64,000 nt of DNA from an uncultured Bdellovibrionales bacterium (GCA_964469265.1 CAYXYF010000003.1:23010-87009), one strand, 5' to 3'. Positions 14,628-43,022 are shown, counted from the stretch's first letter. The notes: generated by a model not told the origin, from the letters alone. Program-made: numbers and translations.

Positions 14628-14666
14628 TAAAAGGTACGCCGTACCTTTTTGTCTAGCTTCGTGTCA
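14628..14666 (+). repeat. copy A of a conserved terminator-like repeat (24-nt core 14632-14655)
   Basis: Core AGGTACGCCGTACCTTTTTGTCTA is identical in four loci. Hairpin (AAA)AGGTAC-GCC-GTACCT(TTT). Conserved 3' flank GTCTAGcttCGtGTcA. Starts 3 nt after the tRNA-Leu CCA. Confidence 0.9.
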
Positions 14667-14855
14667 TCATTTGAAAATCTGGTGTCTCAATGTCCCCAAA
14701 AAAGTTGGTATCGCAGTTGCAATATACTGTAGATGAAACCCAAAGAGTGGCGAAATGGCGCACTTTGGAAAGATTTTGAGTTTTAGGGAAGAGTTGACCT
14801 GAGGATTTAAAGTCTTCTAACTAAGAACCAACAAAAACAACTAAGGGGGGGAATA

Positions 14856-15581
14856 ATGAAAACTTTTAAAGCCTTGTTGGCAGTGCTAGCACTCTCAACA
14901 ATGATCGCATGTGGTGGTGGAGGTGGTAGCACTTCTACTGGTGGATACTATATGTCTCACTCAGAGGTTGCTAAAGAATTTGTCAGAAGGGTTAACATTG
15001 ATCTTGGCTGGGATGTTTCCCTCGTTAAGACGAACACTCTTCAATATGACTATATCGTTGTCTATGACTATGATTACGGAACTTATGATGCCTATTATAT
15101 CGGGAATTATAATGCCGGAGAAAACCTTTCTAGCTACGTGAACTTCTACAATTACAAATTCTATTACGACCTTGTCCCAGAGAGTGGAAATACATACTAC
15201 GACTGGTACACAGGCATTCGCTTTCAAAAAGCAGCAGCTTCAAGCAAGAACTTAAGTGTTGTTAAAGCTTTCAAGCAAGACCTTGCCATCGTAAAAGCAG
15301 CTGAAAAAGTTCATGCAAAATACGGCTTAAGCGAAGAAAAATCTCTTGAAGTCGCAAGATTTGCTTACAACGTTCAAAGCAAGCCTGAAGGTACTTACAA
15401 AATGGCTGACTTTGATAACTTCACAAAAAGACTCACAGGTTCAACAATCACTGAATTCCAATCTGACCTTAAGAGCGGCAACATCTTATCTCTAAATGAC
15501 AGAATTCAAAAGGCTGCTCAAGAGACTGGAATGGGCCCTGAAAACATGAATAAGCTTATTAAAGATGTCTTCATGAACTAA
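14856..15581 (+). CDS. Tyr-rich lipoprotein, unknown function (241 aa)
   Basis: Strong RBS (AAGGGGGGG). Lipobox LSTMIAC followed by GGGGGS. Tyr/Asp-rich segment YDYIVVYDYDYGTYDAYYIGNY. Confidence 0.7.
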   Translation: MKTFKALLAVLALSTMIACGGGGGSTSTGGYYMSHSEVAKEFVRRVNIDLGWDVSLVKTNTLQYDYIVVYDYDYGTYDAYYIGNYNAGENLSSYVNFYNYKFYYDLVPESGNTYYDWYTGIRFQKAAASSKNLSVVKAFKQDLAIVKAAEKVHAKYGLSEEKSLEVARFAYNVQSKPEGTYKMADFDNFTKRLTGSTITEFQSDLKSGNILSLNDRIQKAAQETGMGPENMNKLIKDVFMN

Positions 15582-15608
15582 TACAATTTAACGAATGTAT
15601 TAGAGAGA

Positions 15609-15637
15609 AAAAGGGAGGTCGACAGCCTCCCTTTTTT
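15609..15637 (+). terminator. Rho-independent terminator
   Basis: AGGGAGG-tcgacag-CCTCCCT followed by T6. Confidence 0.8.
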
Positions 15638-15743
15638 ATATATTCTACGACCGTTTAAGACCTTAGGTTCAACAAAATTTACAACGTATTTTCTTTTGAG
15701 TTCTCATCCTATCAGAACATGCTAAACCCTTATTGGGGTAACC

Positions 15744-18700
15744 ATGCAAAAGTCTTTTTTAATTATTCTAAGCTTACTTATTTCAGCACTCGCATTTGCG
15801 AACTCGGTTAGCGATATCCCAGGGCTTATTCCCCTTAATAACCAAAGACCCGCTGCAAGTGATCTTGTTTATAACGGTAAGCACCTTTTGCCAGATGAAG
15901 CTCGTCAACTTCAGCAATCTGGTAAGATCCCAGATCTTTCGCTTCTTAATCCCGATGAAACCTCAATCCTGTGGAAAGATCAGTACCCGAAGGATATAAC
16001 TTCAAAAGATAAAACAATTGCGCTTGATACATCACGTCCAGTTGAATTTTTGGCTTATAGCCCAGACAGCATTGGCCGTATGGGCTTTACAATCTCTCAA
16101 ACAGACTCCACAGGTCAGTTAAGGGTTTTTAGAGTTCGCCTAGAATCACGCTCACACAATGTGTTACTCCGCAAAAACTTGCTTCGGAAAATTGGATATA
16201 ATGTAGAGCCAATTGTTTGGGCACCGACGCTTGCTTTAAATTTTGAAGATGACTTTACCCGTGATGAATTTGAAAGAGCCATAACTGATAGAACATTCCT
16301 AGATTCCCAACGTTGGGTTGTGAACAAAAACCCAAACCAAATTACAATCCAAGATGCAGTTATTTTTGCTGATGCCGATGACACTTTTTATAACCTCGCC
16401 CGCGGCGACATGACGGGTGAGGTGATCCAAAACCGACGGGTTTTAAACGCTCTACTTGTTCCATTCAATCTGCTAGATGTTTCTGAAAGTGTGAATACTT
16501 TTAGCTGGGTTCCAGGGAAAATATTTAACGAGCAACTTTCCTTGCCTTATGAGGATGCACAAGAGTTTTCGACATCCTATGAGGACGCAAGATGGATTAC
16601 ACGTCGGATCCTTAAGCTTACCCGCGAAGACTTCACTCTAATTGTTCGTGAAGCGCATTACCCAAAAGAGGTTGAAGAAATCTTAATTGAGAAAATTATA
16701 TCGAGAAGAAACTTCTTACGAAAGTTTTTGAATCTTGAAAGCATTGCCTCTGAAATAACCGTCAATACGAACGTTCCAAAACTTGAGAAGCAACACTGGG
16801 CTGGCTACGTTCAAAACTTTGCTTACGGAGACCCAGACTCTCCATTATCTGGCGATGAGATTTTTGCATTCTTTAGATCAAAAGCAACAACGAACCTTAT
16901 CACAAACCTCGTCACAGAATTCAATGCTCGCTTTATTCCACGCACCGACCTGGGATGGAAGCTTTTTGACCACCAACTGGACATCTCTGCAAAACAGTTT
17001 GCGGAGTTTATATCAACAGGAAAAGTTTCAAAGACTCCCTTCGGTTTTTGGTCATTTCCACGCTACGACGGCAATATCATTGCATCTCGCGAAATCGTAA
17101 CGGGTAGCTACCTTGGAACTGATAATTTAGTCCAATTGGCCGACGTTGTAGGATTTAGTGTTGAGGCAGGATGGTATATCGGGGCAGACGGTTTGCCATC
17201 TAAAGTAGGTTTTCAAGGTGGAACAAAAGGTTTTATCAATAGAACCTATGCTCACTTAAAACCAATTAAAAGTATTAAACTTGCTCTCAAAGAACCATTT
17301 AGAAATATTCTCGTACCAAAGTTTAAAGGAAATATCGGGACGCGACTCTCTGAAGTTTTCTCTAAAGATTATCAAGAAATGGAACCTGAGGAGCAGGCTT
17401 TAAAACTTCAAGAGATTGCATCGGACCTTAAACAAAGCTTAAACGTAGGGGAATCCATTATTATTTCGACAACTTTGGGCGCAGGCTTAAGCGCAAGTCC
17501 ATCTGTTGGCCTTACGAGCCGACTTGCTTTAGTTACTGCCTGGAGCGCTAGCCAAAATCTCTTATCAAGAATTCATATCTATCGCAGCGACGAAGACACG
17601 ATTCAAATCTACAAAGATCCTGCCCATATGAATGCAAGATCATTTTATATTGGTCTACAAGCTTATGTTCCATTCTTAACTTATACTCTTACGAACCGCG
17701 CAGGACGTGCAAAAACCAATTTCTATGCTTTAAATATCAATGAAGATCCTGAAGCCAACCCAGTACTTGAAGACAACATCAAAGCCCTTTCAAGAGCGCT
17801 TCTCTTTTCGAAGCTCGATAAACTCAACACTCTTCAAAACCCTTACATAATACAGCATAAATTCCGCGAGAAGTTGTCCCAAGGAAGTTTCTTTGTCTGG
17901 AGATCGACAAAGCAAAACACTTCAGACTTGATTTCAGTACAACATCCAACAGGATATCAAAAAGATTTTGTAAGATACACAACAGGGAAAAGAAAAGGCA
18001 GAAACTACGAAGCCCTTGCCATCGATGTTATCAATAGCCTTTTAAAAGAATACAGCGAAGAAGACATCATGCTGCAATCAAACAATAGTGGAGACCCTGC
18101 AGATTCCATTTACGGAAACTCTGTCTCTCAACATTTTGCTTTTGAATCAGAGATCACATCAGACAATAGCATTCAAGATCCATTTGTGAGCCTTTCTTAT
18201 AGATGGAGAAACTGGAGCATCTCACAAAAAAATATCTTGAATTTAATTACAGATATTAATGGTCGCTTTAAATATGAGTTTTTCCATCCATCCGAGTTCT
18301 TGTCCACGGACAAAATACAACTTAGCACCTTTGGTGTGAGCGCGAATATCTATGAGCGCGGAATTTTATTCCTCTTATCTTTCACTAAAGAGCAGATATC
18401 AGACATTCTAAAAGCCCACGGGTATGATCCCAATTACCGCCCAAAGCCTCCAAGAACAGGGACAAAAATCAGGGACGCTGCTGAAAGAGAAAAAATGCGG
18501 AATGCCCGCTTTCATAGATTGTGTATAAAAATGTTTGAGCAATTCAAAAACGCGTACCACGCAGGTGATGTTGAAGCCACGGTAAAATACATGTCAGAAT
18601 TTGTGACTTTTGCTGAAAAGCTTTTGCCAACCCATGATTTCTATAAGTTATTTGGCGGAGAAGATAATATTTTTGTTCGCTCTCATGTTTATGGCTTCAG

Positions 18701-18854
18701 GGCGGGTGATGAAAAAGAAGATAAGGGTCTTTCTTCGCACACGTTAGGTCGAATCGGAAGTGAGAAAGGCTCTGGTCCTCTTAAAGATATTCAAATGAAG
18801 ATTGGTGTTACTGAGAGCGAATTTTTTATTTATTGGTTGATGAACAGGATATAA
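15744..18854 (+). CDS. secreted 1036-aa protein, unknown function
   Basis: Signal peptide LSLLISALAFA. Uninterrupted long ORF. Its stop is 1 nt before the ATG of the subtilase gene. No family recognised. Confidence 0.7.
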   Translation: MQKSFLIILSLLISALAFANSVSDIPGLIPLNNQRPAASDLVYNGKHLLPDEARQLQQSGKIPDLSLLNPDETSILWKDQYPKDITSKDKTIALDTSRPVEFLAYSPDSIGRMGFTISQTDSTGQLRVFRVRLESRSHNVLLRKNLLRKIGYNVEPIVWAPTLALNFEDDFTRDEFERAITDRTFLDSQRWVVNKNPNQITIQDAVIFADADDTFYNLARGDMTGEVIQNRRVLNALLVPFNLLDVSESVNTFSWVPGKIFNEQLSLPYEDAQEFSTSYEDARWITRRILKLTREDFTLIVREAHYPKEVEEILIEKIISRRNFLRKFLNLESIASEITVNTNVPKLEKQHWAGYVQNFAYGDPDSPLSGDEIFAFFRSKATTNLITNLVTEFNARFIPRTDLGWKLFDHQLDISAKQFAEFISTGKVSKTPFGFWSFPRYDGNIIASREIVTGSYLGTDNLVQLADVVGFSVEAGWYIGADGLPSKVGFQGGTKGFINRTYAHLKPIKSIKLALKEPFRNILVPKFKGNIGTRLSEVFSKDYQEMEPEEQALKLQEIASDLKQSLNVGESIIISTTLGAGLSASPSVGLTSRLALVTAWSASQNLLSRIHIYRSDEDTIQIYKDPAHMNARSFYIGLQAYVPFLTYTLTNRAGRAKTNFYALNINEDPEANPVLEDNIKALSRALLFSKLDKLNTLQNPYIIQHKFREKLSQGSFFVWRSTKQNTSDLISVQHPTGYQKDFVRYTTGKRKGRNYEALAIDVINSLLKEYSEEDIMLQSNNSGDPADSIYGNSVSQHFAFESEITSDNSIQDPFVSLSYRWRNWSISQKNILNLITDINGRFKYEFFHPSEFLSTDKIQLSTFGVSANIYERGILFLLSFTKEQISDILKAHGYDPNYRPKPPRTGTKIRDAAEREKMRNARFHRLCIKMFEQFKNAYHAGDVEATVKYMSEFVTFAEKLLPTHDFYKLFGGEDNIFVRSHVYGFRAGDEKEDKGLSSHTLGRIGSEKGSGPLKDIQMKIGVTESEFFIYWLMNRI

Positions 18855-18855
18855 G

Positions 18856-21609
18856 ATGAAGCTTTTTTTATTCATAACTTTAGTTTCAATGACCGCGTTT
18901 GCTCTTGAGCCTTCAAGAGGAACTCCTGCATCCAATGATACATTTAGCAATTATCAATGGGGACTCTATAACCACGGTCAAACTCTTTACCGAGACATTG
19001 ACGATATTCATCCTGTTACTGTGCAGTCCAAACCTGGCTTTGATATTCAGTGGAAGGAACTCCAAGAGCTTCTTCAAGGGAAAAATCGAAAAACGACCAT
19101 TGTAGCAGTAATTGATTCGGGAATTTCAACAACTCATGAAGATATTAAAGATAATGTCCTAGAGGGATTTAATTTCACAGCACCTAACGAGAAGTTAGAA
19201 AAAAATGTTTTAGATGACGTCGGTCATGGAACTCACGTTGCAGGTATTATCGCATCCCACATATCAAATACTAAAGGAATTGCAGGTGTTGCAGATAATA
19301 TTAAAATCTTACCGTTAAAGGTTTACGGGAACAGAAATGAACCTAGCCTTGCCAATTTTGTTGGTCGAGTTGCTAAGGCCATTGACTATGCCGTTGATCA
19401 GAATGTCGATGTGATCAATCTCAGTCTAGGCTGGCCTCTGGCAATTGATCTAGAGGTTGTGCAAAAGGCAATACAACGTGCAATTGATCGAGATATCACC
19501 GTGGTCGCAGGAGCAGGTAACGATGGCCACGGACTACGGGTAATTCCATGTTCTTACGAAGGTGTCATTTGCGTAGGCTCTACGGGGTTAAGCGGAGATA
19601 TTCCAGGCTTTTCAAACTATGGCGGGCAAGTTGATATCATGGCACCAGGTGAAGAGATTTTAAGCTTATGGCCGCCCATGCTGATGCCGCAAAACTTCGG
19701 TCTACGACAATACAATATCTCATCAGGAACAAGTCAATCAGCCCCATTTGTGAGTGCCGCAGCTGCAATTTTAAGATCCTTATTTAAGAATATTTCGGCC
19801 GATGAAATCAAAGCTAGGCTTTTTGCGTCGACCAAAAATGATCTTACTTGGGATCAAAAGTATGCATTAAATGGTTTATTACAAATTGCTAATGCTATTA
19901 AAATAAAACCGCAACCTGTGGTGCGGCCGATTTTAAAAAACTTGGACCAGGTTTTTGTAAATGCCAATACAAAAGAATTTAAATTTACCTTACCTATTAA
20001 AAATTACTGGAACTCTGCTGCGCAAGTCACGATTCGTCTCATACCCAACAGCTCTAATGTCTCTTTTAAACAATCCTCATTCCAACTCGGAACACTTAAT
20101 AAAAGCAAAAGGGCTACTTTAAGTATTTCTGGTTACGCTAAAGATTTATCAGAGAATAACAAACTGACTTTCACAGTTGAGGTCATCACCAATGGCATAA
20201 CTTCAAAGTATCAGCATCAAAGCACACTTGCTCTAAAGACAGAGCATCTCACTGAGATGCTTCGTTTTGCGAACGTTTCTGAACTCCTATCTGTAAGAGA
20301 CTATGACACTGAAGACCTAGATGCGGAATTTTACTCTCAAACTCAAGCGGATGAGGGGCTGACGATTTCTTTATACCGACTGGACGGCTCTCAGTTAAAA
20401 GTGTCTGGAACCTATTTTATTAAAAACGGATATCTGCTGTTTCCGAATGTCGGGTTTGTAAGACGTGATCTAAACAATGACGGAATCCCAGAATACTTTG
20501 TGACCGCTATAATCAAAATTGGAGATGAAATGAGTATTAAGCATTTCATTTTTAATCAAAACTTAAGGCTACAAGAGGGTGAACGCTCCATCTGGAACTT
20601 TGTCGACCAGGGAATTCTACTGAATCAACAAAGTTTGCATTTTGTAGATTGGAACTCAGAGACTTTCGGACCTACGGCGCTTCCGATATTTTGGTCCCAA
20701 GGACAAATTCCTGAAGCCGACTTAAACCCTGATCCTTTTGACCGAATTACACAGGTGAACAAGGGGATTTATTATTTTATGCCCACACTAAAGGAAGGCA
20801 AAGTTGAGCTCAAAACGAGACTTTTAACCAACGAATCTCGGATGGGCAAAATCAGAAAGCAAATCAATGCTCAATTTGATGAGGAAATTAGTTTATTAAA
20901 CTTTGATATTTTTGGTTCATATGTTGAAGTGTTTTTTAGTAGTGGGGTGGCTGCGAATCTCAAATATTATTTGGCGACGTTTGACATGAATAGCGATGAT
21001 ATTGCAATCAAAGCGTTTGATCTTCCGCCAGTGGATTTGCGCTTCCATATGGTGAGATCACTTGGAGACCACCAAGTCAGCTTTTTTGGAATTTATAAAA
21101 ACGATACGGCAAGGCTTTTTATCTTAGACACTCGAACAGCTAGGGTTCAAGACTACAAGCTCATATCCAACAGTGCTCAGAATGGAATTGTATCGCTCTT
21201 AAATGTCCACGAAGACTCCAACTCTATCAGCGCATTAGTTGAGGGCGTTGAAAGCTTTATCCTTTATACTATCGATAAAGCAACGGGGAGCGTGAAAACA
21301 TCCATTGATCCCATCAATCGTTTTAGCTATCTCCCAGGCCAATTCTTCACCGATATGCTGTTTCCAGTGAAGGTGATAGGTACAAAGGGTGCAGTTTATG
21401 TGGATTCCTCTAACATAAACTCAAGAAACGTTCACACCAGCACCGCTACAGACGGAATGATTAAAACGCCAATCAAATGGAGCCTAGAACTTGCAGAAGG
21501 CTGTAAATCTCTCACTCCAAGAAAACTCTACGCCAAGGATCAAAACATCTCCTATATATTCCTCTGCCAAGAAGGCGAAAACCACACCCTAAAAACCTAC
21601 CAACTCTAA
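18856..21609 (+). CDS. subtilisin-like serine protease (peptidase S8) with ~560-aa C-terminal extension
   Basis: Catalytic triad blocks VAVIDSGI (Asp), HGTHVAGIIA (His) and SGTSQSAPFVSAAAA (Ser). Signal peptide present. The C-terminal region contains DLNNDGIPEYF (FG-GAP/Ca-binding-like). Confidence 0.88.
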   Translation: MKLFLFITLVSMTAFALEPSRGTPASNDTFSNYQWGLYNHGQTLYRDIDDIHPVTVQSKPGFDIQWKELQELLQGKNRKTTIVAVIDSGISTTHEDIKDNVLEGFNFTAPNEKLEKNVLDDVGHGTHVAGIIASHISNTKGIAGVADNIKILPLKVYGNRNEPSLANFVGRVAKAIDYAVDQNVDVINLSLGWPLAIDLEVVQKAIQRAIDRDITVVAGAGNDGHGLRVIPCSYEGVICVGSTGLSGDIPGFSNYGGQVDIMAPGEEILSLWPPMLMPQNFGLRQYNISSGTSQSAPFVSAAAAILRSLFKNISADEIKARLFASTKNDLTWDQKYALNGLLQIANAIKIKPQPVVRPILKNLDQVFVNANTKEFKFTLPIKNYWNSAAQVTIRLIPNSSNVSFKQSSFQLGTLNKSKRATLSISGYAKDLSENNKLTFTVEVITNGITSKYQHQSTLALKTEHLTEMLRFANVSELLSVRDYDTEDLDAEFYSQTQADEGLTISLYRLDGSQLKVSGTYFIKNGYLLFPNVGFVRRDLNNDGIPEYFVTAIIKIGDEMSIKHFIFNQNLRLQEGERSIWNFVDQGILLNQQSLHFVDWNSETFGPTALPIFWSQGQIPEADLNPDPFDRITQVNKGIYYFMPTLKEGKVELKTRLLTNESRMGKIRKQINAQFDEEISLLNFDIFGSYVEVFFSSGVAANLKYYLATFDMNSDDIAIKAFDLPPVDLRFHMVRSLGDHQVSFFGIYKNDTARLFILDTRTARVQDYKLISNSAQNGIVSLLNVHEDSNSISALVEGVESFILYTIDKATGSVKTSIDPINRFSYLPGQFFTDMLFPVKVIGTKGAVYVDSSNINSRNVHTSTATDGMIKTPIKWSLELAEGCKSLTPRKLYAKDQNISYIFLCQEGENHTLKTYQL

Positions 21610-21645
21610 GAGGTACGCCGTACCTTTTTGTCTATCCGCGCGTCA
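21607..21645 (+). repeat. copy B of the terminator-like repeat (core 21611-21634)
   Basis: Identical 24-nt core. The upstream conserved TAA (21607-21609) is the subtilase stop codon. The 3' flank GTCTATccgCGcGTcA runs into the stop of the convergent gene at 21643. Confidence 0.9.
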
Positions 21646-22287
21646 TTTAAGCTCCCTTTTTAGCAGCTGCGAAACAAAAGGGAAGGCCGTACCTTTTATG
21701 ATTTTTTGGGCTTCTTTTTCGGATAGTTCGTTGGCTTCTTTTACTAGGTCTTCAAAGATTGTTTCCGTCGCGCCTATCGCAAGTGATGGGAAGCTTGAGT
21801 CTTCTATTTCGCCGCAGGCAATAATATCAAAATTTTGCCATAGTGGCCTCATCGCTTTTTCGTAGGTCCGCGCAAGGTACTTGCCTTGGAGATCGACCGC
21901 CTCTTTGAGTTGCTTGGTAGAAAGGGGAGAGTCCATTTTTAAAGTTTCCAAAATCTCAGTGGATTCTGGCATCCAATTTTTTTGTTCTTTTGTTCGTGAG
22001 AGTTTATAGGCAGCTTTAAAAAACTCTCTTGAAAAGAACGTAGCCCTGCCGAAAAGCCATTTACTATAAACGACCTCTTTTGAACTTGAGAGTTCTGCGC
22101 GCAAGTGCCAAAGCTTTGCAACGCGGTCATCTCCATACTCATCCCATTCCCACCGCATTTCGCTCCGTGGATAGAGAACTTTCCAAATGGAGTTGTACTC
22201 TGGTTTTCCTTTGATTGGAAATACCAACAACATTCCGTGTTCATTAATGGCATTGATAGCTTTAGTTTTAGCGTTCAGCTTTTTCAT
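21643..22287 (-). CDS. hypothetical cytoplasmic protein (214 aa), possible winged-helix fold
   Basis: ORF 8 nt downstream of the MBL hydrolase gene on the same strand. No signal peptide. No confident family. Confidence 0.55.
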   Translation of the reverse strand: MKKLNAKTKAINAINEHGMLLVFPIKGKPEYNSIWKVLYPRSEMRWEWDEYGDDRVAKLWHLRAELSSSKEVVYSKWLFGRATFFSREFFKAAYKLSRTKEQKNWMPESTEILETLKMDSPLSTKQLKEAVDLQGKYLARTYEKAMRPLWQNFDIIACGEIEDSSFPSLAIGATETIFEDLVKEANELSEKEAQKIIKGTAFPFVSQLLKRELK

Positions 22288-22295
22288 AATAACCC

Positions 22296-23120
22296 TTAAG
22301 GATTGCTATTAACTGGTGTGCTCTGCGGAAATATATCGACTTTGTTCCAATGTCTTTTTGGAATATGTTTTTGTAAAATCGTTTTTGCATACTCAACGGA
22401 ATATCGACTTGAAAGGTGAGTGAAGACAATCTTTTCGCCTTTAAATTCATCTAGCCTATCGATGACTTCATAAAGGTGAATATGTCCCCATTTGCGAGCA
22501 TCGTCTACGGACTTTTTCGTATCCCAATAGGTCACTTCCATAAATAAAACTCTACTATTTAGAACCTCAGAGTTTGCTTTCCAAAAATCCATAGTTGTGT
22601 CTCCTGTGTACGAAAAAATCGGTAACGAAATTTCTTCCGTCAGTTCTTCGCCACGGCTTTTGATATCTAAAATTTCTTTCTGAGACAAATTTGCAAATTC
22701 TTGTTTTAATTTGTGTCGAGTTTCAAAAATCGTATAACCTACAGAAGGAATTCTGTGGAAAGTTTTAAAAGGTTTAAAGTAATGATTATTGCCTAATCCG
22801 TACTTAATACCTGGTTCAACAGGCAAAAATTCAAATGTATATTCATGACCATCAATTTTAAACCACTCCTTCATCACATTCTTTAGCGGCTCAACCATAA
22901 CCTCAGGCATATAAAATGTTGCAGGCGGTGCTTTAATTAGCGCTTTTTGTGAAATGATATAAGGAATCCCTGCCGCATGATCCATGTGCGCATGAGTTAT
23001 TAAGAAAGTTTTTGGACGAGCTAACGGCTGAATGCCTTGAGCCACATCAATTGTTACTTTAAGTTCTGGAAGATAGAGACTTGTGCCAATACCTGCAGCG
23101 GACACGCCCTGCACATGCAC
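22296..23120 (-). CDS. MBL-fold metallo-hydrolase (RNase Z/ElaC-like)
   Basis: THAHMDHAAG matches the HxHxDH metallo-beta-lactamase motif. GTG start preceded by GGAAGGA. Confidence 0.7.
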   Translation of the reverse strand: MHVQGVSAAGIGTSLYLPELKVTIDVAQGIQPLARPKTFLITHAHMDHAAGIPYIISQKALIKAPPATFYMPEVMVEPLKNVMKEWFKIDGHEYTFEFLPVEPGIKYGLGNNHYFKPFKTFHRIPSVGYTIFETRHKLKQEFANLSQKEILDIKSRGEELTEEISLPIFSYTGDTTMDFWKANSEVLNSRVLFMEVTYWDTKKSVDDARKWGHIHLYEVIDRLDEFKGEKIVFTHLSSRYSVEYAKTILQKHIPKRHWNKVDIFPQSTPVNSNP

Positions 23121-23234
23121 ATCGCAATCCTTCCAATCGCTATATTTAAAGTAATGAGAATAAATAGCTCACCTCCGAATTCCTTAAACTATATCAGCAT
23201 TTAGAGAGAAAAGTTAGGCGCCGGAAAATTTACA

Positions 23235-23261
23235 TAAAAAAAGACACTCCGAAGAGTGTCC
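23235..23261 (-). terminator. Rho-independent terminator (second hairpin downstream of the POT gene)
   Basis: Minus-strand reading GGACACTC-ttcg-GAGTGTC followed by T7-8. Confidence 0.7.
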
Positions 23262-23266
23262 TTTTA

Positions 23267-23305
23267 TAACGCGGTTCTAGACAAAAAGGTACGGCGTACC
23301 TTTTA
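23267..23305 (-). repeat. copy C of the terminator-like repeat, inverted orientation (core 23278-23301)
   Basis: The reverse complement of 23278-23301 equals the 24-nt core. The conserved TAA is the POT transporter stop codon (23303-23305). Confidence 0.9.
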
Positions 23306-24667
23306 GAGGTTTCCGATGGCGCGTCTTAGTGGCTTGTTTAAGATAAAGAAGATAATCCCTGTTCCGATACCTAATGCTGCAAGCATCATGAAGAAGCTAT
23401 CATGGGTCATCTTTGTGTAGAATGTTCCAAGGAAGCCAGTCATGTAGTTTCCAAAGAAACTAGACATAAACCACATACCCATCATTGTAGAAACGATCGG
23501 TTTTGGAGAGACCTTTGTGACAAGGGATAAACCAATTGGTGATAAGAAGAGTTCACCCATTGTGAATGTCCAAGTTGTAGCCATTAGCCAGAACACACTT
23601 CCACGTTGATCAGCCGGCACCACGAGAGCTGCTGCAATCATAATGATGTAAGCAGCACCACAAAGCACACAACCAATACCCATCTTTGTGACAGAGCTTG
23701 GCTCTTTACCGTGCTTGTTCTGCCAGCCCCAAACCATCGCTAAAAGTGGAGCAAAGATAAATATAAATGCTGGGTTAAAGGATTGATACCAAGTGGACGG
23801 AATATTGATCCCGAAGAAAGTCCAATTTGTTTTATCCGTTGCCCAAAGCTGAAGGGTGTTTCCTTGCTGTTCAAAAATCGCCCAGAAAGTAATATTTAAG
23901 AAGCAAAGGACACCGAGGGCCCACACTCTTTGCCACTCATCTTTTGTTAATGGACGTTTTTCTACTTGCTCATCTTTTACGATCACGTCATGCGGGACAA
24001 GATCACTACCTAACCAGTAAGTGATCAACCCGATGATCATGCCGACACCTGCGGCACCGAAGCCCCAGTGCCATCCGACCATTTCACCTAAAGTTCCACA
24101 AACAATAGGAGAAAAGAAAGCACCTAAATTAATTCCCATATAGAAAATTGTAAATGCACGGTCACGTCTTGGGTCACCGTCGGGATAGAGGTTACCAACT
24201 TGAGTTGAAATATTAGGTTTAAATGCTCCGTTACCCAAAACAATGAATAAAAGAGCTAAAAGGAACATTTGCTCTGATGCCATTAAGAAGTGGCCAATGG
24301 CCATCAAAATACCACCGAGATAAACAGTCCGATACTGTCCCAAAACTTTATCTGCTAAGAGACCACCAAAAAATGGAGTGAGATAAACAAGTCCCGTATA
24401 GATTCCATAAATCTGAGAACTCATTTGCTGAACGTTCATATCACCAAACACACTAATAAGGACGCCCTCTAAAGCCGTGTAGCCCAAAACCGTCTTTGCA
24501 CGCTCTGGTTCAAACAAAAGATACTTTGTCATGTATAGAACAAGAAGTGCTCTCATCCCGTAGTAAGAGAAACGCTCCCACATCTCGGTGAAGAACAAGA
24601 CGAACAAACCTGCTGGGTGCCCTAAATACTCTTTACCAGACAATTTCTTGGTGACGTAACTTTTCAT
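23303..24667 (-). CDS. proton-dependent oligopeptide transporter (POT/PTR2 family)
   Basis: 454 aa, polytopic. ERFSYYGMRALLVLYM and FGGLLADKVLG match the PTR2 signature regions. Confidence 0.88.
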   Translation of the reverse strand: MKSYVTKKLSGKEYLGHPAGLFVLFFTEMWERFSYYGMRALLVLYMTKYLLFEPERAKTVLGYTALEGVLISVFGDMNVQQMSSQIYGIYTGLVYLTPFFGGLLADKVLGQYRTVYLGGILMAIGHFLMASEQMFLLALLFIVLGNGAFKPNISTQVGNLYPDGDPRRDRAFTIFYMGINLGAFFSPIVCGTLGEMVGWHWGFGAAGVGMIIGLITYWLGSDLVPHDVIVKDEQVEKRPLTKDEWQRVWALGVLCFLNITFWAIFEQQGNTLQLWATDKTNWTFFGINIPSTWYQSFNPAFIFIFAPLLAMVWGWQNKHGKEPSSVTKMGIGCVLCGAAYIIMIAAALVVPADQRGSVFWLMATTWTFTMGELFLSPIGLSLVTKVSPKPIVSTMMGMWFMSSFFGNYMTGFLGTFYTKMTHDSFFMMLAALGIGTGIIFFILNKPLRRAIGNL

Positions 24668-31546: not shown

Positions 31547-31572
31547 AACTGTATCAGGAGAGGTAAACTGCT

Positions 31573-35549: not shown

Positions 35550-35577
35550 AAACCTTCCTTTTTAAAAATGTTAGGTC

Positions 35578-36315: not shown

Positions 36316-36445
36316 GGATATTTATACTATGCATTATCGGTGCTACTAATCAACTCCTAAATTATATATTTTATTGATCTTAAAGGGGCTTAGACCTAAC
36401 TTTAATTTTTAGATATTTTAATGGATTTCAACGAGGATGTAATAC

Positions 36446-37117
36446 GTGAAAGATATTCCACAGCACATAAGCATTTCAGAACGAATAGCCGACCAAATAC
36501 ACAAAAACAGAACGCCAATCCTAGGTTTTATTGTTTTAATACTTGTTAGTATTGCGAGCTACTCCATTTACCACCACTATCAGGAAAAATATGAAGCCGA
36601 AGCTCAGGTGGCATTGTTTGATGCCGAACGCTTAATGAATGCTCACCTTAGCATGGGTGAGTTTGCAAAAGAAAATGCAACAAACATTGATACCACTCAA
36701 CTGGAAGAAAAACTCCAATCCATTATTAACGAGTTTCCAAAAACCAAAGCCAGAATGCAGGCTTCTATTTTACTCTCTGAGGTCTATCTTCAAAAAGACG
36801 ATACGGCTAAAGCGATTGCTACGCTTGAGCATAGCTTTGAATACTTCAAAGGAGATTTGCTCGATACCTTAGTGGGACTTAAATTGACAAGCTACTATGA
36901 AAGAAACAAACAATGTGACAAGGCACTTCCAGTTCTTGAAACACTGACTAAAACTGACATTCAGGAATTTAAACCAGAAACACTTTTGAGACAGGGGTTG
37001 TGTCAAGAACTTCTGGGTAACACTGAAAATGCAAAACAGTCTTTTCAGAAGCTAGCTACGGAGTATGGAGACACTGTTCAAGGACAGCAGGCACAAAAAT
37101 ATCTTAAGGTAATGTAG
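36446..37117 (+). CDS. YfgM-like membrane-anchored TPR protein
   Basis: GTG start, N-terminal TM (ILGFIVLILVSIASYSIY) and TPR-like helices. Sits directly upstream of bamB, as yfgM does in E. coli. Confidence 0.55.
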   Translation: MKDIPQHISISERIADQIHKNRTPILGFIVLILVSIASYSIYHHYQEKYEAEAQVALFDAERLMNAHLSMGEFAKENATNIDTTQLEEKLQSIINEFPKTKARMQASILLSEVYLQKDDTAKAIATLEHSFEYFKGDLLDTLVGLKLTSYYERNKQCDKALPVLETLTKTDIQEFKPETLLRQGLCQELLGNTENAKQSFQKLATEYGDTVQGQQAQKYLKVM

Positions 37118-37120
37118 GGA

Positions 37121-38272
37121 ATGCCCATGAACAAGTTCATCCTGATTTTTTCTGTCGTATTATTAGCTGGTGCTTGTTCAACATTGAAGCCTCAGCAAGC
37201 ATTAATCCTAGAGACCAATGTCAACTGGGTACGCTCCACTTTAGCGTCCGAATACCTTGGCGCAAAACTAATTCATTCGATGAAACCAACAATTGTTGAT
37301 GGTGTTATCTATCAAGGTAACTCTGCAGACGGTTTTGTTGCCATCGATCAAAAGTCTGGACGTATCTTATGGCGCCGAAATATTAAAAACGGGGCAAGCT
37401 CTGGTGCATCCGTTGCTAAAGGCAATGTTTACTTCGGCGGAAACGACGGACAATTCTACGCTCTTAAAACATCTAACGGAAAAATCGTATGGACTTTTCC
37501 AACTCAAGCCGAAAGTTTAAACGCACCTACGATTGACGGGGATTCCATTTACTTTCTCTCTGGGAATGGAACGCTTTATTCTTTAGACTTAACAACTGGG
37601 AAAATGAATTGGTCTTATGTTCAAAGAGATAACGCAAGTATTCGCCTGAGAGCAACAGCAGCTCCTGTCATTGACGGCAATATGCTTTATGTTGGCTTTA
37701 GTGATGGAACATTTGCGACCTTTGATAAGGCCAAGGGCTTTTTAAAATGGGAGAGAAGCCTGGCTAGCCCTGAAGACAGATTTAAAGACATCGGCGCAAC
37801 AGCAATTATCGACGGCAATAACATCTATGTCTCCACTTATGACGGGAGTCTGTTTTCTATCAACAAAACCAATGGCAATATTAACTGGAAGACAGAAGAG
37901 GGTAGTGCTGCCGCCGTAACTATTCATGGGGATCGCATTTATTTTTCAACCAGTTCACGAAAAGTCCAAGCTCTTGATAAACAAACTGGCAAAGAAATTT
38001 GGTCCTACGATATTCAAAAAGATGGAGTTGCAACGCAAGCTAGCTATCATAAAGAAATGTTAGTGTTTGGAACCTCTGATGGGCCAATTCATATTATTTC
38101 TGCCAACAATGGTCGCTTTCTCAGATCTTTTGCTACGGGCTGGGGAGTGTCTGCACCAATTACACTGGATGCATCTAGTGATAACATATATGTCATGTCC
38201 AATTATGGAAACATCTACTCCATCAATCTCAAGTGGCAGAGACCTCAGCAACAATGGCCTTGGGAAAAATAA
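37121..38272 (+). CDS. bamB: outer membrane protein assembly factor BamB (PQQ-like beta-propeller lipoprotein)
   Basis: Lipobox LLAGAC. Repeated GxVY.G..DG.lYAld..tGk..W blades (e.g. GNVYFGGNDGQFYALKTSNGKIVW, DSIYFLSGNGTLYSLDLTTGKMNW). Confidence 0.85.
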   Translation: MPMNKFILIFSVVLLAGACSTLKPQQALILETNVNWVRSTLASEYLGAKLIHSMKPTIVDGVIYQGNSADGFVAIDQKSGRILWRRNIKNGASSGASVAKGNVYFGGNDGQFYALKTSNGKIVWTFPTQAESLNAPTIDGDSIYFLSGNGTLYSLDLTTGKMNWSYVQRDNASIRLRATAAPVIDGNMLYVGFSDGTFATFDKAKGFLKWERSLASPEDRFKDIGATAIIDGNNIYVSTYDGSLFSINKTNGNINWKTEEGSAAAVTIHGDRIYFSTSSRKVQALDKQTGKEIWSYDIQKDGVATQASYHKEMLVFGTSDGPIHIISANNGRFLRSFATGWGVSAPITLDASSDNIYVMSNYGNIYSINLKWQRPQQQWPWEK

Positions 38273-38290
38273 ACCAAGCAGGAGAGCTTT

Positions 38291-38662
38291 ATGAAATTAA
38301 TAATGATAGCCATCAGCGTACTTGCCTTAAACGCGTCCGCTTGTAGCTCAAAGCCGTGTCGAGAGGTGAGTATGGAAGGCGTTCCTGCTGAGATTCAGGC
38401 TAAAACCGAATCCAAAAACATATTGGTTTATAAATATGATGGGTCGAAGCAATGCGGTGAAGGACAAGAGATATCACTTGAGGCCATGAGCAAGCAACTT
38501 CGTGGAGTGAAGGTGATTTCGATGAGTAAAAAGCATGACGGTATGATGCGCATCCAAGTTTGTGGTACACCAACTGGCCACGCCAACGTTTATGAAATAT
38601 CAGATAATGATTTAGAAAAAGCAAAGTCATTTGGGTTCCAGCTTTGGAACTTTAAAAACTAG
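38291..38662 (+). CDS. small lipoprotein, unknown function (123 aa)
   Basis: Lipobox LNASAC with a good RBS (AGGAGAG). Confidence 0.6.
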   Translation: MKLIMIAISVLALNASACSSKPCREVSMEGVPAEIQAKTESKNILVYKYDGSKQCGEGQEISLEAMSKQLRGVKVISMSKKHDGMMRIQVCGTPTGHANVYEISDNDLEKAKSFGFQLWNFKN

Positions 38663-38673
38663 GAGATTTGCAA

Positions 38674-39036
38674 ATGAGAGATATTGGACTTTTAATTTTA
38701 AGATTGGGGTTTGGTGGAGTGATGTTGACTCATGGCTTACCGAAGTTAATGAACTTCAACGAATACGCCCAACAGTTTCCAGCATTATTTGGAGTCCCTC
38801 CTAAAGTGAATCTCAGCCTTGCAATAGGGGCTGAAGTATTTTGTTCCCTTCTTGTAATTATTGGCTTTAAAACCAAGTATGTTACGCTTCCTTTGGTTGC
38901 AACAATGTTCACAGCATTCTTTATTATTCATGCCGCAGATCCGTTTCAAGTTAAAGAACTTGCGCTTTTGTATATGATGGCATTCATAACGCTATTTTTC
39001 ACAGGCGCAGGGAAATACTCAGTTGATAAGGAGTAG
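38674..39036 (+). CDS. DoxX family membrane protein
   Basis: LLILRLGFGGVMLTHGLPKL and a four-TM layout typical of DoxX. I prefer ATG 38674 (AGGAG 8 nt upstream) to the TTG at 38668. Confidence 0.75.
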   Translation: MRDIGLLILRLGFGGVMLTHGLPKLMNFNEYAQQFPALFGVPPKVNLSLAIGAEVFCSLLVIIGFKTKYVTLPLVATMFTAFFIIHAADPFQVKELALLYMMAFITLFFTGAGKYSVDKE

Positions 39037-39049
39037 AAAGTAAACAGCA

Positions 39050-40036
39050 ATGATTACTATCAACCAGGAGCTTGCAGAATTTAAAAAACTCCCAGAACTT
39101 TTTAGAAATGCTGGGTACTTTGTCACAAAAAAAGATGAGTATGCCTTTGTTGTATCATCTGACGAGTATCCAAAGCCTAAAAAGGTTACTTACACTGAAC
39201 CAGTTCAACACAAAAAGTATGATCTTTTTCTCTCGGCCTTAGTTCACGGAAATGAAACTGGGGGGCTTCGCGTTTTAAATTGGTTTGGAAGAAAAATAAT
39301 TGCTGATAAAATTAAAATTCCACATTCGTTCTTTTTTTGTTTAGGAAATGTGGAAGCCGCACAAAAAGGCGTTCGCTTCGTTGAACGTGATCTTAATCGC
39401 TCGTTTTTGTCGGTGAGCTCTGAGCTTTATGAAGAGAAGCTCGCAAAAAGAATCGAAGGTTACGTTAAAGACTGTGCCTTTTGCATTGACCTTCATCAAA
39501 CCAATGAAGCGTCTGTAACTCCATTTATGATCTTTATCTACACAGCCCAAAAGTTAGCTTTTGCACGGCACATGGATAGTGAGATTCCAATAATAACCTC
39601 AACATCTGGACGGCATAAGGATGGTTCTACGCTTGATTTTTACTGTTATAAAAACAATATTATCAGTACGACCTTAGAACTCGGAAAAGCAGGCTTTGAT
39701 GATATCCAAGCTGAATACGGAGTGAGGTATCTTTTAAAATATCTAGAGAAATCAGATCTCACAAAAGAAGTTCCATTTAAAAATATTTTTCGAATTGCAG
39801 AATCTATTTATTGGTTTGATGAGAGAATCATTTTAAACCCAGGGTTAATCAATTTTACTGCCATCAACAAGGGCGATGTCGTGGGCAAAAAAGCTGAGAT
39901 CGATTATCCATCGCCACATGACGGGGTGATATTGTTTCCTAAATACGGAAAGATAGCAGAAAACACCAAAGAGGTTTTCACCGTGGCTAAACCCATTTCA
40001 GATCCTGAGGAGCTGAAAAAAGAGCCTCAACCGTAG
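39050..40036 (+). CDS. succinylglutamate desuccinylase/aspartoacylase (AstE/AspA) family zinc hydrolase
   Basis: LSALVHGNETGG (His/Glu zinc ligands), ERDLNRSF and CIDLHQT are the family blocks. Confidence 0.75.
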   Translation: MITINQELAEFKKLPELFRNAGYFVTKKDEYAFVVSSDEYPKPKKVTYTEPVQHKKYDLFLSALVHGNETGGLRVLNWFGRKIIADKIKIPHSFFFCLGNVEAAQKGVRFVERDLNRSFLSVSSELYEEKLAKRIEGYVKDCAFCIDLHQTNEASVTPFMIFIYTAQKLAFARHMDSEIPIITSTSGRHKDGSTLDFYCYKNNIISTTLELGKAGFDDIQAEYGVRYLLKYLEKSDLTKEVPFKNIFRIAESIYWFDERIILNPGLINFTAINKGDVVGKKAEIDYPSPHDGVILFPKYGKIAENTKEVFTVAKPISDPEELKKEPQP

Positions 40037-40130
40037 GCATGCATCGTCTCTGATAAGTTATATTATGTTACACAATGGGTAGAGTTATCTTATTGATTAC
40101 ACCAACCTTAAGGTGTAACTTATCATTTAT

Positions 40131-40325
40131 ATGGGACTTTTATCACTTATTTTCGGCAAAAAACCTAAGGTTATCTTCACAGACGACGGTCGTGTTGTTC
40201 ATAAACATCCTGAAAAGAAATGGGAAGATTGGAAAAACAGATTCCGTCAAAATCCAGATTACAACTGGCGCAGTCATTCAGGGACTAAAGGCGTTCCTCA
40301 ATCAAAACCGAAGAAGCCAGAATAA
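40131..40325 (+). CDS. small basic Trp/Lys-rich protein (64 aa)
   Basis: ATG ORF with protein-like composition (KHPEKKWEDWKNRFRQNPDYNWRSH). The RBS is weak. It competes with a less plausible overlapping 98-aa ORF. Confidence 0.4.
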   Translation: MGLLSLIFGKKPKVIFTDDGRVVHKHPEKKWEDWKNRFRQNPDYNWRSHSGTKGVPQSKPKKPE

Positions 40326-40340
40326 TTCAAACGAGGTACC

Positions 40341-41135
40341 GTGGACAGAAAAGTTCGTGTCATTTCATTAGTACCCTCATGGACAGAAACACTTCTTGAG
40401 TGCGGTATTAATGTTATCGGACGAACACGCTTCTGTATCCATCCCGCAGAAGAAATCGAACATATCCCTGTGGTTGGCGGCACCAAAGAGGTCAACTGGG
40501 ATAAAGTTAAAGGTCTTGAAGCCGACTTCGTCCTCTTAGACAAAGAAGAAAACACCATAGAAATGGCTGAGCAATGTCCATGTCCAATGATAGTTACCCA
40601 CGTTAAATCTATCGAAGATGTTGCCAAAGAATTAATTTCCTTAAGTGAAAAGCTCAGTAACGAAAAACTCTTTAATCTTGCAGGAAGATGGGACGCAATT
40701 ATAAAGACTCCAAACTTCACCGTGAGAGATCTTAATCTTTTACCAGGGTTTGTGCAGTGGGTGCGAAAACCACGCTCTAAGATCAAAGACATTATCTATG
40801 TGATTTGGAAGAATCCATGGATGAGCATTAACCAAGAAACTTTTATTTATTCTGTTTTAGAGAAAATAGGCCTTAAGAAATACATGGTCGAGTTTGATCA
40901 AAAATACCCAGAGTTTTTCTTAGAAGATTATGACAATGAGGGCACTCTACTTTTGCTTTCGACAGAACCTTATCCGTTTCATAAAAAGATAAATGATTTA
41001 AAGTCACTCCCCTTTCCGTCAATGATCGTTGATGGGGAGTGTTTTAGTTGGTTTGGATTAAGATCTTTAAAGTTTTTAGAAGCACAAAGCGAATCTTCAA
41101 AACCCAAAGATAGAGTCTTTAAGATTCGCTTCTAA
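40341..41135 (+). CDS. periplasmic-binding-protein type 2 fold (BtuF/helical-backbone metal receptor-like), no obvious signal peptide
   Basis: GTG start. RVISLVPSWTETLLECGINVIGRTRFC...IPVVGGTKEVNWDKVKGLEADFVLLDKEEN resembles cobalamin/siderophore-type binding proteins. Confidence 0.55.
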   Translation: MDRKVRVISLVPSWTETLLECGINVIGRTRFCIHPAEEIEHIPVVGGTKEVNWDKVKGLEADFVLLDKEENTIEMAEQCPCPMIVTHVKSIEDVAKELISLSEKLSNEKLFNLAGRWDAIIKTPNFTVRDLNLLPGFVQWVRKPRSKIKDIIYVIWKNPWMSINQETFIYSVLEKIGLKKYMVEFDQKYPEFFLEDYDNEGTLLLLSTEPYPFHKKINDLKSLPFPSMIVDGECFSWFGLRSLKFLEAQSESSKPKDRVFKIRF

Positions 41136-41139
41136 GATA

Positions 41140-42930
41140 TTATTGAGGCTGTACTATTAATCCTAAGCGTTCTGCTTTATCAACAGTATTTCTGTGGACC
41201 TTCTCTCTGGATGTATTTCCTTTTTCAATAGAGATGAACTTATTAATAACATAATCGCTAGATTCATTTCTGTTCTTAAAGTTTCCTCTCCATGTATATA
41301 TCATGCTCATGTTGTCATCGAGTTGCTTGTTCCAAGTAACTACTAACCGCTGACCGACGTCTGGGAAATTCGCAACCATATAATCATCACGGCAGACTTC
41401 AATTGTTCCGTAACCTTTACGGTTGTCGATTTTGATACGTCTTGCATCTTGTTGAACATCAATACCAATTGCAGTCGTATTTTGATTATTTTTACCAACG
41501 ATGGAGCCGCGATATTCATTATCGTGAGTTGCAACTGCCTCTACCCATGTTGTTTTAAACTTACTACTTACACTCTTATTGACAAGATCACGATCTACGA
41601 ACAACTGATGAGAGCTGTACTCGTTAACTGGATCGAGAATGAACTTGTGCATTTCTTCAAGATCAAGACATTTATCAACGTTAACAGTAGGCTTTGTTGC
41701 CACTGGTGCTGCCGCAACTTCATCAGCAGAGTTTAAGGGTTGTTGAGCCACAGCCCCTTCGTTGGAACTAATCGGTGCCGTGCTTACCACTCCAGAAGTT
41801 CTTCCAACGGATTGAATCGGTTGCTCTGTTCCAACTGCTACAGTTCCACATTTTTTCAGAGACTCAACATATTCAAAGTAAGTCATGTTGTAGTTTCTTG
41901 AATGTCTGGTAGCTCCTTTTGCCTTACATTCTATGTTTCCACGCTGAACTTCTCGCTCAAAAGGAGTTTTACCAGAACTATCTTTATTAAAATCAAAGTC
42001 TTTTAATGCTCTTCGAGTTGTGCCACGAACTGCTGATCTATTATCAGCTCTTTTAAGTCGGCAATCGTTCCACGGCTCACCTTCCTCAGTTGTGCAAGTC
42101 ACTTGTTGTTGAGGAGCTGCAACTGGCGGTCTGTAGACTGGAGTATTGTCGCGCTCACCTTTGACAATAACTCTATCTAATTCAGTCACTCGATCAGATA
42201 CTGGCCTAGTAGATTGCGGACAATTGTAAGGAGCCAATACACGGTACTCTTCTACAGTGTACGTATAGTTTGTCTCAGAATCAGAAGCATTCGGAAGTTT
42301 ACAGATAAGATTATTTGAACTTCCTTTTTTATTTACGTTTCTATTTTTACAGTCCCTGTTTACGTTTGTGCAATCATAGGTATTACCTGGTGATGGTGCA
42401 GGTGCTGGAGTTGGATCCACTGGCGGGATATAATCACCGTCACCGTCTTCGACAACATCCTTACCTAAGCTTGAATCTCTTTTTGTATCTTTATATCTAA
42501 ATGGTTTTGTATAACCAACTTGGCCACCAAAGCATCCACCCGTTGTATAAAAACATCCAGTGCGAACCTGCGGAACACAATAGTTAAATTGAACCGCATA
42601 GTTTTGGCAGTACTGCAAGAAGGCTTGCTTAACAGCATATGGGTTTTGACAGAATCCAGCTCCATCTCTTGCTAACCAACCACAATAAGATAATAGGTCA
42701 GGAAACATTTGATTGGCCTGACAACCTTGCGGGATTGGATAACCTGGGTTTGAAGGATAGTAGCCTTGATAAGGGTTAGAGTTATAACCATTTCCATAAA
42801 TCTCATTGGTCGTTAAACCATAAGGATTATGGCCATATCCATAAGGCTGGGATCCACCGTCTTTTTTCTTACTACAAGCGACAAAAACTGTTACCGCCAG
42901 AAGACATATAATTAGGTTTAAGACTTTCAT
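41140..42930 (-). CDS. 596-aa lipoprotein with N/Y/P/G-rich and Cys-rich N-terminal region
   Basis: ORF track extends to 43059. I start at ATG 42930 (GGAGAAG RBS), giving MKVLNLIICLLAVTVFVAC (lipobox). The longer form would read through repeat copy D. Confidence 0.7.
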   Translation of the reverse strand: MKVLNLIICLLAVTVFVACSKKKDGGSQPYGYGHNPYGLTTNEIYGNGYNSNPYQGYYPSNPGYPIPQGCQANQMFPDLLSYCGWLARDGAGFCQNPYAVKQAFLQYCQNYAVQFNYCVPQVRTGCFYTTGGCFGGQVGYTKPFRYKDTKRDSSLGKDVVEDGDGDYIPPVDPTPAPAPSPGNTYDCTNVNRDCKNRNVNKKGSSNNLICKLPNASDSETNYTYTVEEYRVLAPYNCPQSTRPVSDRVTELDRVIVKGERDNTPVYRPPVAAPQQQVTCTTEEGEPWNDCRLKRADNRSAVRGTTRRALKDFDFNKDSSGKTPFEREVQRGNIECKAKGATRHSRNYNMTYFEYVESLKKCGTVAVGTEQPIQSVGRTSGVVSTAPISSNEGAVAQQPLNSADEVAAAPVATKPTVNVDKCLDLEEMHKFILDPVNEYSSHQLFVDRDLVNKSVSSKFKTTWVEAVATHDNEYRGSIVGKNNQNTTAIGIDVQQDARRIKIDNRKGYGTIEVCRDDYMVANFPDVGQRLVVTWNKQLDDNMSMIYTWRGNFKNRNESSDYVINKFISIEKGNTSREKVHRNTVDKAERLGLIVQPQ

Positions 42931-42984
42931 GGAGCTCTTCTCCTGTTTAATTGCATTTGAGTCCGTCATGTAACTATTACATAG

Positions 42985-43022
42985 CAAGAGGTACGCCGTA
43001 CCTTTTTGTCTAGCGCCGTGCC
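42985..43022 (+). repeat. copy D of the terminator-like repeat (core 42989-43012), not at the 3' end of any annotated gene
   Basis: Identical 24-nt core with 3' flank GTCTAGcgcCGtGcc. Lies about 60 nt upstream of, and antisense to, the lipoprotein start at 42930. Confidence 0.9.

Follow-up and report, generated by a model that had tools for sequence, protein, structure and literature searches.

Repetitive extragenic palindromes (REPs) and the REP-associated tyrosine transposases (RAYTs) that accompany them have been studied almost only in Gammaproteobacteria, and the benefit that REPs bring to their hosts is still debated. A gene for a RAYT lying between two inverted REPs is the diagnostic arrangement, and no RAYT homologues were reported outside the groups of Proteobacteria near the gamma branch (Nunvar 2010, PMC2817692). 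In the three systems tested, recognition or cleavage depends centrally on a GT(A/G)G head, and in IS200/IS605 elements a neighbouring short sequence may serve as a guide or cleavage site (both PMC8266576). Most E. coli REPs are without a poly-U tract (bioRxiv 10.64898/2026.03.23.713779). Here we describe a family of short hairpin repeats in a stretch of 64,000 nucleotides from an uncultured Bdellovibrionales bacterium (CAYXYF010000003.1:23010-87009; hereafter the window, with positions counted from its first letter). A reading made by a model from that sequence alone (the sequence-only reading) had favoured a REP-like element, or one resembling a miniature inverted-repeat transposable element (MITE), that doubles as a terminator. 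Our analysis indicates that the four copies in the window probably belong to a REP family of Bdellovibrionota that is cognate to a clade of RAYTs, with the sense-oriented copies being plausible weak-to-moderate terminators or 3' stabilisers.

The 24-mer AGGTACGCCGTACCTTTTTGTCTA occurs four times in the window without a mismatch, at 14632-14655 (+), 21611-21634 (+), 23278-23301 (-) and 42989-43012 (+), the same copies that the sequence-only reading had listed. No fifth match was found in the 64 kb when up to 3 mismatches were allowed, and 100 shuffles of the sequence gave 0 matches, the chance expectation also being 0. All four copies are intergenic singlets, in which a perfect 15-nt hairpin (6-bp stem, 3-nt loop) lies inside a conserved unit of ~35 nt, as follows.

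14632..14666 (+): REP copy 1, with the hairpin AGGTAC-GCC-GTACCT at 14632-14646, a T-run to 14650 and the flank GTCTAGCTTCGTGTCA at 14651-14666.
21611..21645 (+): REP copy 2, with the hairpin at 21611-21625, a T-run to 21629 and the flank GTCTATCCGCGCGTCA.
23267..23301 (-): REP copy 3, with the hairpin at 23301-23287, a T-run to 23283 and the flank GTCTAGAACCGCGTTA.
42989..43023 (+): REP copy 4, with the hairpin at 42989-43003, a T-run to 43007 and the flank GTCTAGCGCCGTGCCA.

Aligning the four copies shows conservation on both sides of the hairpin, with AA(A/G) directly before AGG on the 5' side and GTCTA(G/T)nn(n)CG(Y)G(Y)(Y)A on the 3' side. The claim that the flanks are conserved beyond the needs of a terminator thus holds for the window, and the 3' flank extends it to the clade (below).

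A collection of species-representative genomes was searched with the 19-nt hairpin and T-run only, the flank being omitted to avoid circularity, and the scan was limited to exact 19-mers. This yielded at least 110 loci from ~27 genomes, essentially all labelled Bdellovibrio, Bdellovibrionales, Pseudobdellovibrionaceae, Bacteriovoracaceae or Bacteriovorax. The sequence-only reading had held that a motif confined to its four sites, or a flank whose conservation vanished in a wider alignment, would leave only a generic hairpin; we found the motif at these many loci and the flank conserved among them. In total the relatives' loci comprise 822 kb with 116 exact copies and ~20 near-copies, the changes in the latter falling mostly in the 5' arm. 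As in the window, the copies are intergenic, with none inside genes. The window shares synteny with Bdellovibrio loci at 40-72% protein identity, which together with the motif's distribution makes its host a divergent member of Bdellovibrionota. Its density of copies is ~1 per 16 kb; in the relatives, the ~26 copies beyond those that seeded the 822 kb correspond to ~1 per 30 kb, and extrapolation from these densities gives roughly 100-250 copies per genome, a REP being typically a palindrome of 20-40 nt with more than 100 copies in a genome. There were 0 matches to the 19-mer in viral contigs and 0 matches to the window's own 24-mer in metagenomes, and no Rfam family matched the repeat, either at gathering thresholds across the whole window or at E <= 1 around copy 1. 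Neither a published description of the family nor a paper containing the hairpin sequence was found in the searchable literature, and Bdellovibrio is unmentioned in the supplements of three REP survey papers. Three loci carrying the repeat (L022, L041 and L051) come from JBLMWG, named 'Bacillota bacterium MAG290', and are near-identical around the repeat to the Bdellovibrio metagenome-assembled genome JBJTMR (for example L041 compared with L060); the 'Bacillota' label is probably a binning or taxonomy error.

The 3' flank, which was outside the query, is conserved across 113 copies at G19, T23 G24 C25, G29 C30 R31 T32 and A34 (G-nnn-TGC-nnn-GC-r-T-n-A), and the flank in the window, GTCTAGC..CG.GT.A, is one version of this clade-wide pattern. 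Its first seven nucleotides (positions 19-25) are near-invariant within a genome and different between genomes, with the versions cggatgc, gcgatgc, gccacgc, gcattgc/gaattgc, ggagtgc and gaaatgc in the relatives and gtctagc in the window. At orthologous sites the flank is each genome's own version, and the copies therefore evolve in concert. In the most distant lineages (Bacteriovorax, CAILEP, JAIELP and L085), the flank motif is absent and the core tops longer, A/T-extended palindromes. We considered a second hairpin within the flank (TGC-nnn-GCR) and rejected it, as pairing was as frequent as in column shuffles and covariation gave no support; in L114 the flank does form a perfect hairpin, CCGGATGC-AGT-GCATCCGG. 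We also rejected the hairpin and flank as a sigma-70, sigma-54, sigma-28 or ECF promoter, since the spacings and key bases, judged by eye on position counts, are a misfit. As a separate observation, the flank version 'cggatgc ggc g' (L008, L036, L053 and others) equals the 11-mer CGGATGCGGCG inside the E. coli K-12 REPs that flank rayT (GCCGGATGCGGCGTGAACGCC..., L112), which could be a coincidence or deep homology of a REP arm.

The repeat is linked to a RAYT-like gene in relatives. Used as a query against the repeat-selected loci, the translated E. coli rayT gene detected open reading frames (ORFs) in L010, L012 and L040, each encoding a 212-aa protein, with scores of 25.8-29.8 bits for Pfam Y1_Tnp (cut-off 23) and with HUH histidines and YxYxNP tyrosines that align with those of RayT. 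The L010 and L040 proteins score 72.9 and 56.8 bits on the NCBIfam model NF047646 (REP_Tyr_transpos) and 16-18 bits on the IS200 model, and the sole PDB match of the L010 protein is E. coli TnpArep (4ER8, E = 5.9e-9). All three genes are bracketed by inverted copies of the repeat, one on either side, whose T-run and flank sides are directed toward the gene. A search for a RAYT/IS200-like gene, which the sequence-only reading had advised for the host's own genome, thus succeeded in these relatives.

Because these RAYT loci had been chosen via the repeat, the test was redone from the protein alone by scanning metagenomes with an alignment of the three proteins, which returned 80 loci. In all eight homologues with at least 52% identity, GGTACGCCGTACC (<=2 mismatches) lies no more than 200 nt from the gene, and in six it is present on both sides. 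Homologues with 36-47% identity (n=28) are without this core, except for a diverged variant, GGTACCACGTACC, flanking L133. When 14 such homologues were examined, 13 proved to be flanked by other inverted repeats of similar style (L123 has only an 11-nt match), for example GGTAGGGCCTTCCTTTTT, AAAAGGTGCC..., AAAGGTGTCCGTCACCTTTTGG and AAAAGGTGCCTGCCATCTTTTTGGG. Metagenome loci in which distant homologues have inverted repeats of their own include L119/L148, L120, L122, L129, L132, L135, L140 and L143, and many of the repeats beside these distant homologues share a style in which a GGT-type hairpin stands between an A-run and a T-run. A single 707-kb contig holds two RAYT paralogues, L113 and L120 (the latter one of the 13), whose repeats differ. 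The RAYT locus of L010, L012, L113 and L114 is syntenic: an HD-domain gene lies on one side of it and a duplicated 282-aa gene on the other, an arrangement that fits a vertically inherited, domesticated gene. The association in both repeat-selected and protein-seeded loci argues that the repeat is, as had been suggested, a candidate recognition site for a REP-associated transposase.

Across the relatives' loci, the unit nearly always has its hairpin side against a functional boundary. For about 58 of the 118 copies this is the stop codon of a co-oriented ORF, ~40 of these beginning -2 to +2 nt from the stop with the stop codon in variable register. For a further ~40 of the 118 it is a divergent gene's start, 2-40 nt away, and the remaining copies adjoin a tRNA end or another terminator. 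The copies are only weakly biased in their orientation to genes, and a replication-strand bias was not significant (55 vs 38 loci, p = 0.10). Many E. coli REPs are said, in work by Liang, Rudd and Deutscher from 2015, to lie within ~15 nt of stop codons and to affect translation, so a position flush with the stop codon has precedent.

Comparing orthologous sites in related genomes, another check proposed at the outset, revealed presence/absence polymorphism or decay in L028/L071, L063/L091 and L010/L012. In the prkA-yeaH-spoVR cluster, L028 and L071 differ in that the copy follows the yeaH stop in one genome and precedes the yeaH start in the other, with empty junctions of 1-13 nt. L063 has a copy where the orthologous site in L091 is a 26-nt spacer, and in L012 a copy has collapsed to AAAAAGGTACC (GGTACC) through loss of 7 nt between two GTAC repeats. 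The site behind the gene for a POT transporter, occupied by copy 3 in the window, has no copy in relatives with a POT protein that shares 83-85% identity with that of the window. In these same relatives (L193-L196), the POT gene and a metallo-beta-lactamase-fold gene are separated by a gene of 193-194 aa that has no Pfam match; positions 22296-24667 of the window are without it, and copy 3 and a terminator fill the interval.

B. bacteriovorus kdesi (L076, L086 and L092) and L043 have inverted doublets that resemble REPINs (hairpin-T5-17 nt-A5-hairpin'), and L001 has a cluster. Slippage duplicates of CGCCGTACCTTTTT are present in the relatives' loci. Partial tandem duplicates of the 3' arm and T-run (CGCCGTACCTTTTT or GTACCTTTTT) stand beside full copies at window 21685-21697 (+), L040 3902-3920, L090 2511-2544 and L027 1335, and these, together with the L012 collapse, look like slippage products from their sequence. 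For the MITE part of the sequence-only reading, a cut-and-paste element is not supported: the junctions show neither terminal inverted repeats nor a target-site duplication, nor any common sequence. On the left, the unit meets either a stop codon, whose register varies, or a ribosome-binding site (RBS) or start codon, and the empty orthologous sites are too diverged to fix the exact ends of the element.

These patterns bear on the alternative that best survives, in which the repeat is a non-mobile cis-element of the host. Here the hairpin and flank would be bound by a conserved RNA- or DNA-binding factor of Bdellovibrionota with a role in termination, mRNA stability or the nucleoid, purifying selection would hold them at gene boundaries, and the link to RAYT would be secondary. 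An identical core across very distant lineages is what such an element predicts, as is the close fit of the hairpin side to stop and start codons; copies are kept at orthologous sites in several species, and a flank that follows the genome at such sites could come from a co-evolving factor. Yet copies are also gained, lost and decayed at orthologous sites, the neighbouring genes share no common function, the near-random orientation to genes argues against a single role at the RNA level, and no candidate factor was found. The tight association with one RAYT clade, and of other clades with other hairpins, is moreover the prediction of a REP/RAYT pair, and we regard a host cis-element as unlikely.

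The perfect palindrome AGGTAC-N3-GTACCT could also be the operator of a dimeric transcription factor, an idea that its symmetry of 6+3+6 and the third or so of copies lying 2-40 nt upstream of a start codon would suit. Its core, TAC-N3-GTA, resembles TTAC-N3-GTAA, the LexA box reported for B. bacteriovorus. However, half of the copies are behind stop codons or between convergent genes, and the loop always has one orientation with respect to the T-run and flank, something unexpected for a symmetric operator. A regulon was rejected because the neighbours of antisense copies are functionally unrelated housekeeping genes: assigned by eye, they are pgpA-, tsaA- and thyA-like genes and genes for an HD-domain protein, a proline iminopeptidase and an ECF sigma factor. 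With the family linked to RAYT as well, an operator is very improbable.

Comparably poor are the prospects of a DNA-uptake-type sequence that resides in terminators and marks self DNA, which had been offered as a third possibility. The repeat does share a clade-wide signal, lineage-specific versions, a terminator-like setting and occasional inverted pairs with the DNA uptake sequences (DUS) of Neisseria. DUS and the uptake signal sequences (USS) of Pasteurellaceae, however, have a density of ~1 per kb, with many copies inside genes, whereas the repeat occurs about once in 16 kb of the window and, in relatives, adds ~1 copy per 30 kb; no copies of the repeat lie inside genes, the unit is hairpin-based and 35 nt long, and it is specifically linked to a transposase gene. 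These organisms are also not known to have an uptake bias.

The part of the conclusion that concerns termination depends on the surroundings of each copy. The following features of the window are relevant.

14534..14625 (+): tRNA-Leu(taa), whose transcript would continue into copy 1.
21685-21697 (+): half-copy GGCCGTACCTTTT (3' arm and T-run), 60 nt downstream of copy 2.
23235..23262 (-): strong canonical bidirectional terminator with a UUCG tetraloop, AAAAGGACACTC-TTCG-GAGTGTCTTTTTTT, 17 nt downstream of copy 3 and in the same orientation.

Three of the four copies (1-3) are placed correctly for a terminator. Copy 1 starts 6 nt past the CCA end of tRNA-Leu(taa) and is the sole terminator-like structure directly 3' of it. 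Copy 2 starts 1 nt past the TAA stop of an S8 peptidase gene (18856..21609, +), and its last three nucleotides, TCA at 21643-21645, are the reverse complement of the stop of a convergent ORF (21643..22287, -). Copy 3 starts 1 nt past the TAA stop of the POT transporter gene (23303..24667, -). The terminator at 23235..23262 is separate from the repeat and is behind the same gene, so copy 3 is not the sole terminator for it. Copy 4 has no co-oriented gene upstream. It is antisense to a divergent gene (41140..42930, -) and 58 nt upstream of that gene's likely start, the most likely start codon being the ATG at 42928-42930, preceded by GGAG. A mechanical ORF call (41140-43059, -) with a TTG start at 43059 overruns copy 4, the likely true start being that ATG. 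The ~596-aa product has no Pfam match.

Folded as RNA, the core with its A/U extension forms a ~9-bp hairpin of about -8 kcal/mol (z = -3.5), followed by T5. This is weaker than the other terminators of the window (14427, 15607 and 23243), which have stronger stems that are, as the sequence-only reading had described, unrelated. With T5 after the hairpin, sense-oriented copies, including copies 1-3, are plausible weak intrinsic terminators or 3' stabilisers as judged from their sequence. Conversely, the third of the copies that are antisense cannot terminate their neighbour gene, so that 'doubles as a terminator' describes the family only in part, at best: the REP half of the proposal is supported, through the clade-wide family and the RAYT gene between inverted copies in relatives, and the terminator half could apply only to the ~58 of 118 copies that are co-oriented, against the ~40 that face divergent starts. 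Ordinary intrinsic terminators alike merely by convergence or local duplication, which the hairpin of about -8 kcal/mol with T5 and the three window copies directly behind a gene or tRNA might suggest, are ruled out as a full account, and hardly credible, given 24/24 identity at four unlinked sites (0 expected), a conserved flank past the T-run, the same 19-mer in at least 110 loci of ~27 genomes, the antisense third, and the different, stronger stems of the other window terminators.

Several points weigh against a RAYT-linked REP family with terminator activity. The GT(A/G)G head that classical REPs carry 5' of the stem is absent, the 5' positions here being Y-T/C-A-R-R or remnants of a stop codon or RBS. 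An exact core of 15-19 nt from Bdellovibrio to Bacteriovorax is far deeper than is usual for REPs, and core conservation is partly an effect of having selected loci by exact match; an additional host function could also constrain the sequence. The score of 72.9 bits falls just below the NCBIfam equivalog cut-off of 80, the RayT search found no RAYT gene in the 64-kb window (best E = 0.34), and the majority of copies are singlets rather than REPIN doublets. For the terminator part, the stem is weak, with 3 G-C pairs, about one third of the copies run antisense to their neighbouring gene, 11 of 115 copies (copy 3 included) have a strong canonical terminator in the 100 nt that follow, and one copy is inside the prkA-yeaH-spoVR gene cluster.

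On balance we favour a RAYT-maintained REP family, for which the following mechanism is proposed by homology with the studied RAYT systems (PMC8266576). The substrate of a RAYT (HUH/Y1, IS200 superfamily) would be the single-stranded form of the 15-nt hairpin AGGTAC-GCC-GTACCT and its 3' flank. The enzyme would be inherited vertically, and the window's host presumably has one gene for it, or a few, in another part of its genome. By cutting and joining beside the hairpin, it would spread or homogenise the copies, and RAYT-driven spread or homogenisation would account for a clade-wide hairpin, seven genome-specific nucleotides and turnover of copies at orthologous sites. Where a sense copy lies behind a gene or tRNA, as copies 1-3 do, the transcript would fold into a ~9-bp hairpin followed by U5, most likely to serve as an intrinsic terminator of weak to moderate strength or to stabilise the 3' end; copies in antisense, copy 4 among them, would be just hairpins in 5' leaders or intergenic DNA.

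More tentatively, the pair might be a REP with a built-in U-tract, maintained by its RAYT, that supplies portable terminators or 3'-end hairpins genome-wide, flush with stop codons and tRNA ends. If so, the dual constraint of enzyme recognition and RNA function would explain why the 15-19-nt core is identical and only the adjoining 7 nt drift by lineage. The 3' module may also act as a guide or cleavage determinant in place of the GTAG head. The T-tract makes a terminator role directly testable, and the combination of a deep core and a concerted flank offers a natural experiment for separating transposase-imposed from host selection. In practice, the repeats merit masking or annotation in Bdellovibrio genomes, where they can mislead predictions of terminators, small RNAs and motifs.

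Set beside known systems, the repeat has features of several. With Neisseria DUS and Pasteurellaceae USS it shares a family-wide short signal, lineage versions and terminator-like inverted pairs, and it differs in being 10-30 times less dense, strictly extragenic, hairpin-based and transposase-linked. As in Rho-independent terminators, a hairpin is followed by a T-run, upstream A residues often extend the stem, and the sites are behind stop codons or tRNA genes; unlike them, the repeat is identical at unlinked sites, conserved beyond its T-run, antisense in about a third of cases, weak in its stem and sometimes followed by a strong terminator. IS200/IS605 ends and the MITEs derived from them likewise have a subterminal hairpin, recognition as single strands by a Y1 transposase (predicted here) and no cut-and-paste terminal inverted repeats. 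The relatives' transposase, however, scores 72.9 bits on the RAYT model against 16.2 on that of IS200, its gene occupies one syntenic locus rather than multiple insertion-sequence copies, and the dispersed units are ~35 nt long and carry no gene.

The closest likeness is to the REP/REPIN-RAYT systems of E. coli, Pseudomonas and Stenotrophomonas, with which the family shares a short, multi-copy extragenic palindrome, a hairpin particular to each transposase lineage, a syntenic transposase locus and, in a few genomes, inverted doublets. The Y1/HUH gene between two inverted copies, seen in the relatives, matches the REPtrons of Gammaproteobacteria, and the perfect stem with a 3-nt loop matches the group 3 REPs of S. 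maltophilia (PMC8266576). Compared with these systems, the stem is shorter (6 bp), the only likeness to GTAG is the GGTAC within the stem, and the extra conserved module is 3' of the hairpin (T5 and G-nnn-TGC-nnn-GC-r-T-n-A), with the T-tract that most E. coli REPs do not have built in. The transposase is also longer, at 212 aa against the 165 aa of E. coli RayT, with a C-terminal extension of ~70 aa, and the core is conserved over a clade at the level of a phylum, in hosts outside the groups to which RAYTs had been assigned. The family would thus extend the REP/RAYT system to the predatory Bdellovibrionota, in a form in which the head thought central to recognition is absent and a 3' module is conserved instead.

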